This document shows positions 60,365-64,000 of a stretch of DNA of 64,000 nucleotides, one piece after another. Origin of the DNA: Vulcanimicrobiota bacterium (GTDB taxonomy: Bacteria; Vulcanimicrobiota; Xenobia; Xenobiales; JADMJV01); the NCBI GenBank assembly GCA_050250895.1, contig JBFWNU010000001.1, positions 224,001 through 288,000 of the forward strand, given 5' to 3'. Below the pieces are notes generated by a model, which was not told the DNA's origin, did no database searches, and was given only the letters and a program-made list of their open reading frames with translations. The first letter of the stretch is position 1, and each line of letters begins with the position of its first letter. Position numbers and translations under genes: made by a program.

Positions 60365-61378
60365 ATGCAGTATGACGCTCTGTTGGTCGTCTCGTTCGGC
60401 GGCCCCGACGGACCAGATGATGTCATTCCCTTTCTCGAGAACGTCTTGCGCGGTAAACACGTGCCCCGGGAGCGAATGCTCGAGGTAGCCGACCACTATC
60501 AGCATTTCGGTGGCAAGAGTCCCATCAACGAGCAAAACCTCGCTCTGATCGCCGCTCTCGAAAAAGAGCTGGCAGCCCACGGTCCCAAACTGCCCATCTA
60601 TTTTGGCAATCGCAACTGGCATCCGCTTTTGCCCGACGCCCTGGCCCAGATGCGAGCTGACGGGGTCAAGCGGGCCCTGGCCTTCTTCACCTCGGCCTTC
60701 AGCAGCTATTCGGGCTGTCGCCAATATCGTGAAAATCTCGCCCAGGCCAGCGCGGAAGTCGGCGAAGGTGCCCCTCAAATCGACATCCTGCGCAAGTTCT
60801 ATAACCACCCCGGCTTCATCGAGCCCATGGCCGAGGCCCTCAAAGAAACCCTCACCCGCTTACCCAGGGCCGAGGTGCTTTTCACGGCCCACAGCATCCC
60901 CTCGGTGATGGCCCAGCACTGTAACTACGAATCGCAGCTGGCCGAAGCTTGCCGGTTGGTGGCCGAGCAAGCCGGAGTATCCCGCTGGGAACTCGTCTAC
61001 CAAAGCCGCAGCGGCCCGCCCCAGCAACCCTGGCTCGAGCCCGACATCTGTGACCGCATCGAAGAGCGGTGCGAGCAGGGCCTTGAACAGTTGGCCATCG
61101 TGCCCATCGGCTTTATCTCGGACCATCTCGAGGTGCTCTATGACCTCGATACCGAGGCCGTCGAGCTCTGCCACGAGAAGGGCGTAGCCGTCGAGCGGGT
61201 GCCCACGGTCGGGGTGCATCCCAAGTTCGTGTCGATGATCGCCGAGTTGATCCGCGAGCGAATGGATGGCGGCGTCCCCAAGCGCTGCCTGGGCAGCCAG
61301 GGGCCCAGCCACGACGTTTGTCCGACCGACTGCTGCCTTTACCCAGCCACCCGTCCCACCCGGGCCGCCGTCAACTAA
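60365..61378 (+). CDS. hemH: ferrochelatase
   Basis: SFGGP, GNRNWHP, FTAHSIP, YQSRSGPP..PWLEPD, PIGFISDHLEVLYDLD. Confidence 0.96.
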   Translation: MQYDALLVVSFGGPDGPDDVIPFLENVLRGKHVPRERMLEVADHYQHFGGKSPINEQNLALIAALEKELAAHGPKLPIYFGNRNWHPLLPDALAQMRADGVKRALAFFTSAFSSYSGCRQYRENLAQASAEVGEGAPQIDILRKFYNHPGFIEPMAEALKETLTRLPRAEVLFTAHSIPSVMAQHCNYESQLAEACRLVAEQAGVSRWELVYQSRSGPPQQPWLEPDICDRIEERCEQGLEQLAIVPIGFISDHLEVLYDLDTEAVELCHEKGVAVERVPTVGVHPKFVSMIAELIRERMDGGVPKRCLGSQGPSHDVCPTDCCLYPATRPTRAAVN

Positions 61379-62086
61379 ATGACCTGGGGGCAGGCTCTAG
61401 CTGACCGGGCCGAGAGCCTGTTCGCGGCGCACGCCGATGCCGAGAAGGCAACGCAGATGGCCGCCTACATGAAGGACCACTTCGCCTACTTCGGACTGCC
61501 TCAGCCAGCTCGCAAAGCCCTGGTGCGCGACCTCAAGCTGGGTCGACCCGACCGCGCCCAACTGCTGGCCAGCACCGAGGCCCTGTGGGCGAAAGAGCAA
61601 CGCGAATTGCATTATCTGGCCATCGACTTGCTGATCAAACACCAGAAGGTGCTCGAAGAGCAAGATCTGCCCTGGTTGCGAGGATTGTTGACCACCCACA
61701 GTTGGTGGGACAGCGTCGACCCTCTGGCCAGCCACGTGTTGGGGAGTCTGCTCTGGCGCTATCGCGAGCTGTGCTCGCACCTAGACGACTGGATCGCTTG
61801 CCCAAACCTCTGGTTGGCCCGTTCGGCGCTGCTCTTTCAGCTACGCTACAAAGACGAAACCGACTTCGAGCGGCTGTCGCGCTACATCCTGACGGTCTGC
61901 CACAGTGGCGAGTTCTTCTTGCGTAAAGCCATCGGTTGGGCGTTGCGCGAATATTCCAAGCACCAACCGGACCGGGTCGTCTCTTTTGTCGAAACCAACG
62001 CCGACAAACTCTCTGGACTGTCGCGGCGCGAGGCGCTTAAATGGTTGGAGCGCAAAAAAAAGTCCCGGTCGAAACCGGGAACCTAA
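61379..62086 (+). CDS. DNA alkylation repair protein (AlkD family)
   Basis: MAAYMK, SWWDSVD, EFFLRKAIGWALREYSK, LSRREALK. Confidence 0.93.
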   Translation: MTWGQALADRAESLFAAHADAEKATQMAAYMKDHFAYFGLPQPARKALVRDLKLGRPDRAQLLASTEALWAKEQRELHYLAIDLLIKHQKVLEEQDLPWLRGLLTTHSWWDSVDPLASHVLGSLLWRYRELCSHLDDWIACPNLWLARSALLFQLRYKDETDFERLSRYILTVCHSGEFFLRKAIGWALREYSKHQPDRVVSFVETNADKLSGLSRREALKWLERKKKSRSKPGT

Positions 62087-62134
62087 ACTGGAGGGTCCAC
62101 TTTGCGCGGGGATGCTCGCGCAGATGCTTGGTTG
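62054..62134 (-). ncRNA. putative small RNA, copy 1 (about 80 nt)
   Basis: TTGTGA-17-TACACT promoter, 5' hairpin, GTGGACCCTCCAGT core, TCCCGGT-ttcg-ACCGGGA hairpin + T8. 5' end inferred. Confidence 0.7.
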
Positions 62135-62139
62135 ACCTT

Positions 62140-62195
62140 AGTGTAGGCTGGAGTCCAGGGGTTCACAACCCGTCAATCCTGAACACGAAGTTACC
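62140..62195 (-). promoter_or_regulatory. promoter and upstream box of sRNA copy 1
   Basis: -10 TACACT 62145..62140, -35 TTGTGA 62168..62163, upstream GTAA-n5-TGTTCAGG. Confidence 0.65.
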
Positions 62196-62224
62196 GTTGT
62201 AAACAAGCTGTTAAATGAGACTAC

Positions 62225-62337
62225 AAAAAAAAGAGCCCGGTCTGTTCGAGCCGGACTACACTGGAGGGTCCACAACTTAGCGCTTGGCTGGGATACAAAC
62301 TTCGAGACGGGTTTGCCTCAGGAGCCGATCACCAATA
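62225..62337 (-). ncRNA. putative small RNA, copy 2 (about 110 nt)
   Basis: TCGAAC-17-TACACT promoter, 5' stem-loop, identical GTGGACCCTCCAGT core, AGTCCGG..CCGGGCT hairpin + T8. 5' end inferred. Confidence 0.7.
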
Positions 62338-62342
62338 TCTAG

Positions 62343-62397
62343 AGTGTAGACCAGGGTGAAGCTTTGTTCGACCCGAAAACCTGAACAAGTCATTACA
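62343..62397 (-). promoter_or_regulatory. promoter and upstream box of sRNA copy 2
   Basis: -10 TACACT 62348..62343, -35-like TCGAAC 62371..62366, upstream GTAA-n5-TGTTCAGG. Confidence 0.62.
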
Positions 62398-62438
62398 AAG
62401 ATTGCCATTTTGCTGCAAAATGTTACCAAAGGTCGCAC

Positions 62439-63860
62439 ATGACTGATGCCAATCGCCCCGCCGTCCTTTGGTGGGAGTTAGCCCTGGCCGTGCTGGCCTG
62501 GTTGCCAGCGGCCGCTTTATTCTACCGACCCAACATCACCTACCGCCACACCGCCGACCTGAGTCTCGATGGAGACGCCCAGACACTCGGCATCTGGCTG
62601 GTCCTGGCCTGCCTGGCGCTGGTGGCCACGCGCCCCTGGCAGAATCGCTCTCGCTACGGCACGGGAATTCGCTGGATCGGGGTCGTCAGCGCTGGCTGCG
62701 GACTTGCCCTGGTGGTCTTCTTCTTTTTGCCCTGGGGACGGTATCAGGCGATCAAGTTCGAGACCCATCGGCTCAACCTGCATGTCACCAACTACGAAGA
62801 CGGATTGCGGGGCGATCTTTCGCGTGAACTCTTCGACCCGCAGGTCGGTCCCTATCTGACTGCCGACGCGGCCCTGCTCAAGACGCTAGTCGAACGCGAC
62901 CAACTGCTCACCGAGCCTCTGGCGGCGCGGCTGGTTATGGCTAGCTTGCTCGATCAGGGTCTCGACTGGGACCAGTTGCGCGGCTTGCCGGGTGGAAAGA
63001 ATTTGCTGATGGGAGCCCTGCTGGCCGAGCCCGATGCCTGGCCCGACCAGCCGGCCACTCACCCACCGTTGCAGCCCGACCCCGAGCAGGGCCTGACCTG
63101 CGGCCTGTTCTCGCGCGAGCAGGTAGCCCGGACCCTCGCCGACTATGTCTCGACCCTCGACGGGGCCGACTGGCACGCCCTCGAACCGGCGGTGGTGGCC
63201 TGCATGCACTTTCCCGACCTGGCCACCGAGACCCAGCGAGCGCGGGTGTTCACCGCCTGGAGTAGCGCCTTTCGCGACGCCGGCCAACTGGCCGTCCAGG
63301 CGCTTTCGATGCGGGCCGAGCTGATCGACCTGCTCGGTTCAACCCGGACGGTGAGGCTGGCCGTGGTTACCAAGGGAGAGTTTCAGCAGAGCTACAAGGA
63401 GGAGCTGACCCGCGTCCTGCCACTCATGGCGGCCGGGCTGGTCCACGCCTGCGGGGTCAAGACCGTGCCCGCCCAACCCGACCAGGCCGACCTTCTGATC
63501 ACCCTCGAGCTGGGTGAGGTGCCCCACTATGACTGGTCTCGCCCCACCTATCGCTACGAGACGGTGGTGACCCAGCGCCGGGGTTACGGCCGCTATGCAA
63601 TCCCCCAGACGGTCACCGAAAGCCGGCGGGTTGCCGACGGCAGCGAGCGTATGACCGAATATGCGCCCACCGCCCGCGTTCTCTTTCGCTATGCTGGCAA
63701 AGAGATCGTGATGGGACCCTTGATCGTCCAATGGCACCGCTACTTCTACGACGCCGAGCAGCACCGCTACCCCGACTCGCCCGACGACCTCTACGGCCGC
63801 CTCTGGCCGCTGGGCGTCCACCTCGACTGGTTCCTCTTCAAGCGCCCCGACGAGTATTAG
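62439..63860 (+). CDS. hypothetical membrane protein
   Basis: Three N-terminal TM helices and a large soluble domain. Confidence 0.72.
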   Translation: MTDANRPAVLWWELALAVLAWLPAAALFYRPNITYRHTADLSLDGDAQTLGIWLVLACLALVATRPWQNRSRYGTGIRWIGVVSAGCGLALVVFFFLPWGRYQAIKFETHRLNLHVTNYEDGLRGDLSRELFDPQVGPYLTADAALLKTLVERDQLLTEPLAARLVMASLLDQGLDWDQLRGLPGGKNLLMGALLAEPDAWPDQPATHPPLQPDPEQGLTCGLFSREQVARTLADYVSTLDGADWHALEPAVVACMHFPDLATETQRARVFTAWSSAFRDAGQLAVQALSMRAELIDLLGSTRTVRLAVVTKGEFQQSYKEELTRVLPLMAAGLVHACGVKTVPAQPDQADLLITLELGEVPHYDWSRPTYRYETVVTQRRGYGRYAIPQTVTESRRVADGSERMTEYAPTARVLFRYAGKEIVMGPLIVQWHRYFYDAEQHRYPDSPDDLYGRLWPLGVHLDWFLFKRPDEY

Positions 63861-64000
63861 CCAGGCTCAGCGGGTGAACCAACCGCCCGGCAATCGCCAG
63901 CTATGGCCAGGTCCGGAAGACTCGTTACGCCAACGTTGGCGGGCGTTTTCAACCTCGGCGTCGCTGGAATACTCGGACGGCTCTTCTCGCACGCCATCAG

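Follow-up and report, generated by a model that had tools for sequence, protein, structure and literature searches.

What are the two short, similar units that lie in tandem on the minus strand just beyond alkD, in the 64,000-nt stretch of a Vulcanimicrobiota genome analysed here (the window), and what might they act upon? A preliminary description had taken these units, between positions 62054 and 62400, for sibling small RNAs (sRNAs) with matching promoters and a shared operator, each presenting a C-rich seed that represses mRNAs led by GGAGG. We examined them in the window's own genome (G000; 9.5 Mb, 99.6% complete) and in its relatives. On balance, we favour the reading that the pair, here called copy A and copy B, are two tandem and independently transcribed sRNA genes, that they form a divergent subtype of a multi-copy family, and that their products act as base-pairing sRNAs. 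Repression through an anti-Shine-Dalgarno sequence is proposed as the leading mechanism.

The elements of both copies were read from the minus strand of 61700..62800, and all of the following lie on that strand.

62225..62336, minus: copy A, predicted sRNA of ~110 nt, its 5' end placed at the 7th nt after the -10 box
62054..62133, minus: copy B, predicted sRNA of ~80 nt, read from the sequence
62273..62260, minus: core of copy A, the 14-mer GTGGACCCTCCAGT (exact match), with AAGCGCTAAGTT just before it
62100..62087, minus: core of copy B, the 14-mer GTGGACCCTCCAGT (exact match)
62225..62257, minus: intrinsic terminator of copy A, GC hairpin and T8 (62232..62225), from terminator scan and fold
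62054..62080, minus: intrinsic terminator of copy B, hairpin 62080..62063 and T8 62061..62054, from terminator scan and fold
62348..62343, minus: -10 box of copy A, TACACT
62145..62140, minus: -10 box of copy B, TACACT
62396..62393, 62387..62380 and 62375..62371, minus: GTAA, TGTTCAGG and CGGGT of copy A
62194..62191, 62185..62178 and 62172..62168, minus: GTAA, TGTTCAGG and CGGGT of copy B

Every element that the preliminary description had assigned to the two minus-strand units is present at its position. Both hairpins were called by the terminator scan, and the fold of copy B has a z-score of -2.63. The mean column identity of the two copies in a pairwise alignment is 72%, concentrated in the named elements, which bears out the earlier view that identity is confined to the functional parts. 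The 5' domain of copy A (~60 nt) is unalignable with copy B, the 5' part of which is a short GC stem-loop with an AUCCCC loop, and the 5' stem-loops of the two do not align. Placed behind a promoter-like -10 box and closed by an intrinsic terminator of its own, each of the two units looks like a separate predicted sRNA gene.

As had also been noted, copies A and B have no open reading frame (ORF) in common. A 45-aa ORF (62138..62275) begins in the copy A core and crosses the copy A terminator into the copy B promoter, and its frame ends after 5 codons in copy B; a 53-aa ORF (62277..62438) also overlaps the units, and both cross promoter and terminator parts, with neither ORF recurring in the other copy. 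The 14-mer GTGGACCCTCCAGT occurs exactly twice in the window and exactly twice in the whole 9.5-Mb genome, with 2 further genome sites at one mismatch (a reversed-pattern control gave 12 at up to one mismatch), and TGTTCAGG is found at 4 places in the window, where 1.85 would be expected. It is conservation in other genomes, rather than these window statistics, that sets the pair apart from chance.

The RNA family and its distribution

A BLAST search of the interval against 40 relatives returned a 56-nt match (86% identity) in the other genome of the window's genus (G001; genus g1) and a 26-nt match (96% identity, E = 1.9e-4) in a genome of another genus (G005), the latter lying over the upstream motif of copy B. 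The 26-nt match belongs to the promoter of an sRNA of what we call the major type, and both loci carry the core GTTGTGGACC(C)TCC followed by a terminator. The family core is AAGCG..TTGTGGACC(C)TCC followed by a T-run, of which copy A holds AAGCG-CTAA-GTTGTGGACCCTCC and copy B holds GCGCAAAGTGGACCCTCC. A search for core plus T-run was positive in 8 of 16 genomes of the bacterial family (2 of 2 in g1, 6 of 8 in g3 and 0 of 6 in g2), with 2-7 loci per positive genome, compared with 0-3 per genome in reversed-pattern controls. The core singled out in the preliminary description is thus conserved in relatives, in genomes of both g1 and g3.

In the major type, the -10 box is followed by an A-rich leader (ACAAGCGAAUAAC, found only in this type) and then by a long stem, CCGCCGAG...CUCGGCGG, which doubles as the terminator and encloses a ~45-nt loop in which AAGCGUUGUGGACC(C)UCCUGC occurs together with a further motif, AUCCUCAA. 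All 21 aligned members have the core GTGGACC(C)TCC unchanged, and the contiguous invariant positions number 15 (TGTGGA, then CC, then TCCTGC). Single genomes contain both CC and CCC variants of the core, and this one-base indel between members excludes a conserved reading frame through the core. The stem comprises 10 bp, of which 7 are changed on both sides, and 90.9% of its cells are paired in the 21-member alignment. None of 500 shuffles reached these values, and registers slid by 1-3 columns pair just 29-48% of cells. Covariation analysis thus revealed compensatory changes in the major-type terminator stem.

A covariance model (R1) was built from the 21 major-type members, with the window copies left out. 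Of the 151 genomes of the phylum that we sampled, 9 yielded matches at E ≤ 8.2e-10, 28 in total and confined to g1 and g3; g2 (0 of 6) and the other 20 families sampled had none. Among the genomes searched, the predicted family is confined to two genera of one family of Vulcanimicrobiota/Eremiobacterota. Run unfiltered on 61800..62600, R1 matched copy A at 62226..62307 (20.4 bits, E = 7.4e-5) and copy B at 62055..62143 (15.4 bits, E = 0.0017), in both cases by way of the core and the U-tail. Since the stem pairs of R1 are non-canonical there and not formed, and the core is followed by a separate small terminator hairpin, in place of a long stem that would enclose the core and a second UCCUC motif, we assign the window copies to a divergent subtype. 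The terminator hairpins of copy A, copy B and the G001 gene have different sequences, and all fold. A genome search for more copies of the 14-mer, as envisaged at the outset, returned no exact ones beyond these two.

The window's genome encodes three major-type genes (C1:1585964-1586058, C1:2134915-2135010 and C1:2807507-2807602). Each paralog occupies its own locus, syntenic between pairs of genomes with orthologous loci, and the neighbour comparison revealed no gene neighbour common to paralogous loci, as expected for independent trans-acting genes. In G001, a single window-type gene with an identical core is convergent with alkD, overlapping it by 31 nt, and adjoins hemH as in the window; the amino-acid identity between G001 and the window is 49% for alkD and 71% for hemH. 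Because G001 has one gene at the same locus, the tandem duplication is specific to the window's lineage, and the putative sRNA genes A and B would have arisen within this lineage by duplication of a single ancestral gene of the alkD-hemH locus. The subtype itself dates back far enough to have orthologs in both genomes of the genus.

Wider scans did not extend this range. An all-species genome scan gave at least 119 stretches, mostly chance, and the true members among the matches listed were only contigs of genomes already found. A metagenome scan for the window-type core plus T-run gave 16 stretches, none of which, by reading, has the family context.

We also compared contigs of four metagenome DNA runs from sludge and wastewater (X1, X3, X6 and X7), 90-99% alike to the window, over 61900..62500. 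In one strain contig (X1, record 1), which covers 61910..62349, we counted 37 differences: 20 within the final 100 nt of alkD (61951..62050), and 9 within the spacer (62206..62222) that separates the copy A terminator from the copy B array. A single difference (62152) lies in copy B and its promoter (62054..62205), and there are none at 62223..62345, the copy A body. A second contig (X7, record 13) keeps the copy B body with 2 differences and 1 inserted base, and copy A (62223..62299) is unchanged. The RNA bodies are far more constrained than the adjacent alkD 3' coding sequence, and the contrast is large despite the low depth of these contigs. In X7 record 13, 75 unlike letters replace 62149..62222 (the copy B promoter and array) while both RNA bodies are kept, which suggests promoter turnover between strains.

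Besides these genes, the window's genome carries three copies of a cousin sRNA, 94-95% identical to one another, at C4:344745-344835(+) (L287), C2:646226-646299(+) (L288) and C1:809330-809407(-) (L289). They have an A-rich leader, a large-loop terminator stem and an upstream array as in the major type; the loop carries CCAACCUCUCUCC, with the loop motif CCUCUCUCC. None of the remaining 15 genomes of the bacterial family yielded the cousin. Elsewhere, on C1(-), ~100-170 nt downstream of 3741805, GTTGTGGCCCTCTGGAG is followed by a GC hairpin and T9, directly after the stop codon of a gene for a long Gly-Asn-Ala repeat protein. With its likeness to the window-type core and terminator, this site may represent a relative within a 3' untranslated region.

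Upstream array and promoter architecture

The preliminary description had read a shared operator, GTAA-n5-TGTTCAGG, upstream of both copies. To place it, we anchored 20 g3 promoters on the -10 box, counting positions from the first -10 base. Family members have TAnnnT where the window copies have TACACT, and no -35 is recognisable, the matrix consensus being uninformative there. Upstream lies an array of units at fixed positions, as follows.

-89 unit: 7 of 20 g3 promoters; left half of the palindrome TGTGAAC-N4-GTTCAYA
-79 unit: 8 of 20 g3 promoters; right half of the palindrome TGTGAAC-N4-GTTCAYA
-58 unit: 15 of 20 g3 promoters; first part of GTTTACAAAGTTTACA
-49 unit: 11 of 20 g3 promoters; second part of GTTTACAAAGTTTACA
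~-38 unit: GGCAACA, read from the matrix consensus
62371..62427, minus: array of copy A, GGTAAC at -79, GGCAAT at -58, GTAATG at -48 and GTTCAG at -38, then CGGGT
62168..62204, minus: array of copy B, GTTTAC at -59, GGTAAC at -50 and GTTCAG at -39, then CGGGT

Because the window units share the register of the family, GTAA-n5-TGTTCAGG corresponds to the -48 and -38 units of this array. Under a family promoter matrix trained on g3 promoters only, whose training sites score 21-41 bits, copy B reaches 12.2 bits with an offset of 1 nt; a score of 12 bits or more is found at 159 of the 19.0 million positions scored in the genome, compared with 98 in the reversed control. The operator thus appears to be part of a position-fixed array common to the two genera. 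A shared regulator is well supported for copy B by this predicted array and suggested for copy A, and co-regulation of the two copies is plausible. The lack of a recognisable -35 would fit dependence on an activator.

Above 14 bits, the matrix finds 37 sites in the window's genome, compared with 9 in the reversed control, and the highest-scoring of them lie ahead of the cousin sRNAs and of genes encoding small glycine-rich proteins that match no Pfam family. This suggests a sizeable, uncharacterised regulon with the promoter architecture of the sRNAs. Matrix sites include C1:1743952, C1:2011248(-), C1:3192804 and C4:532110, with further ones at C1:1505941, C1:3895450 and C6:425335. The small glycine-rich proteins behind such sites include L222, L228, L230 and L234, of which MFDFKISGGFGGGGGG..., MGKVKNQPNININ... 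and MGQLGGIGKMLGG... are examples.

Arrays of this type also stand before other genes. GTTAAC/GGTAAC units phased at ~10 bp precede a FlgE/F/G-like flagellar rod/hook gene (L231; C1:1466500-1467315, minus), and the same type of array precedes a T2SS-F pilus/secretion platform gene (L224; C1:1014448-1015713). We considered the GTTCAC-like repeats as PHO boxes and set this idea aside; behind similar arrays lie FlgE/F/G-like, T2SS-F and uncharacterised genes, and no phosphate genes. The best of 72 ABC matches in the genome scores 202.8 bits against PstB, for which the curated NCBIfam cut-off is 343.2 bits, and the lack of a PstB-type match at this cut-off is surprising in a genome of 9.5 Mb and 99.6% completeness. 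Long coding arrays built of GGCAAC/GGTAAC 9-nt repeats, encoding Gly-Asn-Ala repeat proteins, were false positives of the promoter-unit scan (C1:3741805-3743277(-), C2:978921-979757(-), C5:432643-432711(-) and C10:59305-59328).

Proposed action and rival explanations

How might the RNAs act? The 16S rRNA of the window's genome has the 3' end ...GGAUCACCUCCUUUCU, from which GGAGG would be expected as the Shine-Dalgarno sequence, and Hfq is encoded (85 bits). In the model that we propose, a sigma-70-type -10 box would drive each gene, dependent on a DNA-binding activator that would occupy the GTnnAC-like units spaced ~10 bp apart at -38, -48 and -58 from the -10 box. The RNA would end at the intrinsic terminator, where the U-tail could bind Hfq; both window copies end in T8, and in the major type the A-rich 5' leader could add to Hfq binding. 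The C-rich core GGACCCUCC would then pair with GGAGG[G]UCC in the G-rich Shine-Dalgarno regions of a number of mRNAs and block ribosome binding, as with other C-rich-seed sRNAs.

The earlier claim that GGAGG-led mRNAs are repressed did not gain from target prediction, as the scans performed no better than their controls and turned up no conserved target. A duplex-energy scan of 78,621 heuristic start regions, with a 7-mer prefilter and reversed-seed controls, gave 901 duplexes at or below -20 kcal/mol for copy B (1140 for the reversed seed) and 1853 for the seed T1 (2435 reversed). Target prediction by duplex energy was therefore uninformative, the reversed seeds giving as many strong duplexes or more. 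The exact complement GGAGGGTCC has 82 matches, 18 of them near starts, and the control CCTGGGAGG has 240, 41 near starts, which is no enrichment. Over the 16 genomes of the bacterial family, GGAGGGTCCA-N0-9-ATG occurs 34 times compared with 39 in controls; it matches equally many times in genomes without the sRNA family, and no two of the proteins downstream of it are homologous. Candidate sites with at least 10 nt of perfect complementarity over a Shine-Dalgarno sequence lie at C4:85120, C3:146968 and C1:1629596-1629605 (a DUF4349 gene) in the window's genome. A 13-nt complement at C5:47046 was rejected because it sits in an Arg/Gly/Pro-rich and probably spurious frame.

Several further observations weigh against reading the pair as independently transcribed, base-pairing sRNAs. 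The -35 elements are weak, with 3-4 of 6 consensus matches by reading, and a sigma-70 consensus scan of 61800..62700 called 0 promoter-like sites. The region upstream of copy A scores -11.5 bits against the family matrix, though weak units are in register, so that the matrix matches the array of copy B alone. The undescribed co-regulated family first envisaged is a real family with many more than two copies, and the negative score leaves the co-regulation of both window copies in doubt. The CCCUCC motif, which in the predicted fold of the major type is unpaired with a probability of 0.88-0.98, reaches just 0.55-0.67 in the window type, with means of 0.55-0.58 for the window copies, where UGGA and UCCA are predicted to form a 4-bp stem around a CCC triloop and so partly hide CCUCC. 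The single-stranded seed of the preliminary description is thus a predicted feature of the major type, and is predicted to be half-exposed in the window copies. Finally, the strain contigs have a depth below 6, so single differences among them may be errors.

The absence of an excess of complementary start regions is what might be expected if the RNAs acted on a protein or the ribosome instead of on mRNAs, with the invariant 15-nt core as a binding site or decoy. The core could mimic the 16S 3' tail, which it resembles (UGGA-C-CCUCCU vs UGGAUCACCUCCU), or offer a GGA site that titrates CsrA, which is encoded in the window's genome (75.5 bits), or another RNA-binding protein; moreover, its 15 contiguous positions, invariant in 21 of 21 members, are more than most seeds require. 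However, there is a single GGA per RNA, whereas known CsrA sponges carry many, and bulged pairing would tolerate the CC and CCC variants within the same genomes more easily than a rigid protein site would. Nor does the gene neighbourhood supply a partner, as the paralogous loci have no common neighbour. We regard action on a protein or the ribosome as unlikely. More local action is improbable. Copy B overlaps the last 33 nt of alkD and the G001 ortholog overlaps it in the same arrangement, so the RNA could be an antisense RNA to the alkD 3' end, or the element a bidirectional terminator or roadblock, with the family likeness reduced to a scaffold of promoter and terminator. Against this, the overlap comprises the terminator only, leaving the conserved core outside, and the overlapped tail lies beyond the Pfam domain of the protein. 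Copy A has no alkD overlap, other members sit at unrelated loci without a common neighbour, and the hairpin, read on the plus strand, is preceded by an A-run and lacks a U-tract behind it.

That the element has more than one copy, and that the 45- and 53-aa ORFs overlap the region, could also point to non-functional remnants, repeat elements or small-protein genes. We consider this very improbable: the exact 14-mer has just 2 copies in the genome, every paralog has a syntenic locus of its own, conservation is much higher in the RNA bodies than in the coding sequence beside them, and the ORFs are unshared, with the CC/CCC indel breaking any frame through the core. A broader reading would make the sRNAs the riboregulatory arm of a large lineage-specific regulon. 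It would join position-fixed promoters (TGTGAAC-N4-GTTCAYA near -90/-79, GTTTACA-like repeats at -58/-49/-38 and a -10 without a -35), the same architecture driving dozens of small glycine-rich protein genes in the window's genome, and a modular scaffold with interchangeable C/U-rich loops (GGACCCUCC, CCUCUCUCC) resembling the 16S 3' tail. That all of this holds jointly is unlikely; if it does, the RNAs would broadly retune translation initiation when the master regulator is active.

Known systems and the surrounding locus

Are these RNAs already known under another name? Scans with Rfam 15, run on 60500..64000 to E = 10 and on six further loci of the family to E = 1, brought up no match close to a gathering score. 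The best Rfam match to copy B is RF02837, anti-hemB of Burkholderia (23.0 bits against a gathering threshold of 49.5), and the best to copy A is RF02278, a Betaproteobacteria toxic small RNA (19.2 against 50 bits). Both resemble the window copies in being short, with a C-rich unpaired stretch and then a GC terminator, but what aligns is the terminator and a UCCC run, many of the pairs being non-canonical, and they belong to another phylum. The window copies are not members of RF02837 or RF02278. A full-text literature search found no paper on sRNAs of Eremiobacterota/Vulcanimicrobiota, as judged from titles and abstract openings.

Unpaired C-rich motifs that are proposed or shown to pair with G-rich ribosome-binding sites are known from C-rich-seed sRNAs of Gram-positives (RsaE/RoxS, 6C). 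These have no sequence or structural homology to the window RNAs, and none was matched in the Rfam scans. Sets of sibling sRNAs under one regulator are likewise known, such as Qrr1-5, OmrA/B and the meningococcal sibling sRNAs; they share with the window RNAs paralogous genes, an identical seed and similar promoters, and their regulator and targets are known.

The closest analogue in kind appears to be the cuckoo RNAs/alpha-r14, which include RSs0680a-d (CcsR1-4 of Rhodobacter), NfeR1 and SmelA075-type RNAs of rhizobia, and in which, according to excerpts of the sources, the stems vary and conservation is limited to a loop motif, CCUCCUCCC, that resembles an anti-Shine-Dalgarno sequence (PMC4615179, PMC10746234). 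As in those excerpts, the present RNAs are multi-copy siblings, sometimes in tandem clusters, with structural variants in one family and some loci of kept genomic context (PMC4615179, PMC10746234). The motif here is GGACC(C)UCCUGC with AUCCUC, whereas the cuckoo RNAs have CCUCCUCCC, as far as the excerpt describes them (PMC4615179); CCUCCUCCC is absent from copies A and B. In the same excerpt, the cuckoo RNAs form 2-4 adjacent hairpins, in contrast with the ~45-nt loop in one long terminator stem of the major type and with the 5' stem-loop, core and separate terminator of the window type (PMC4615179). The cuckoo RNAs so described are from Alphaproteobacteria, and those predicted here are from Vulcanimicrobiota-labelled genomes. 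The present RNAs would be like the cuckoo RNAs at most, and not members.

We conclude that the predicted sRNAs form a family that is real and conserved, had not been described before and is of a kind already familiar. With its invariant C-rich core, covarying stem and shared promoter architecture, the family offers a concrete entry point to post-transcriptional control in a phylum known mainly from metagenome-assembled genomes. It may add another independent case of C-rich, anti-Shine-Dalgarno-like sibling sRNAs to those already seen in Alphaproteobacteria and Firmicutes, its promoter array may lead to an uncharacterised regulon, and the covariance model is ready for annotating these genomes.

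The genes on either side of the pair are as follows.

61379..62086, plus: alkD, DNA alkylation repair (Pfam PF08713, E = 2.3e-63, aa 14-223 of 235)
62439..63860, plus: gene for a 473-aa protein with no Pfam match, divergent from copy A, with 12 nt between its start and the outermost unit of the copy A array

The gene 62439..63860 is not the neighbour in G001. On the other side, alkD is convergent with both sRNA units and its stop codon lies inside the copy B terminator. The antisense overlap with the alkD 3' end noted in the preliminary description is real, and it recurs in the sister genome. The last residues of the alkD protein, encoded at 62051..62086 (+), read ..KKKSRSKPGT in the window and ..KKKPVFRPV in G001 (L036:1515..1545, minus). 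These tail residues are outside the Pfam domain and are encoded antisense to the sRNA terminator and T-run, so that the predicted sRNA gene appears to dictate the tail of the alkD protein.

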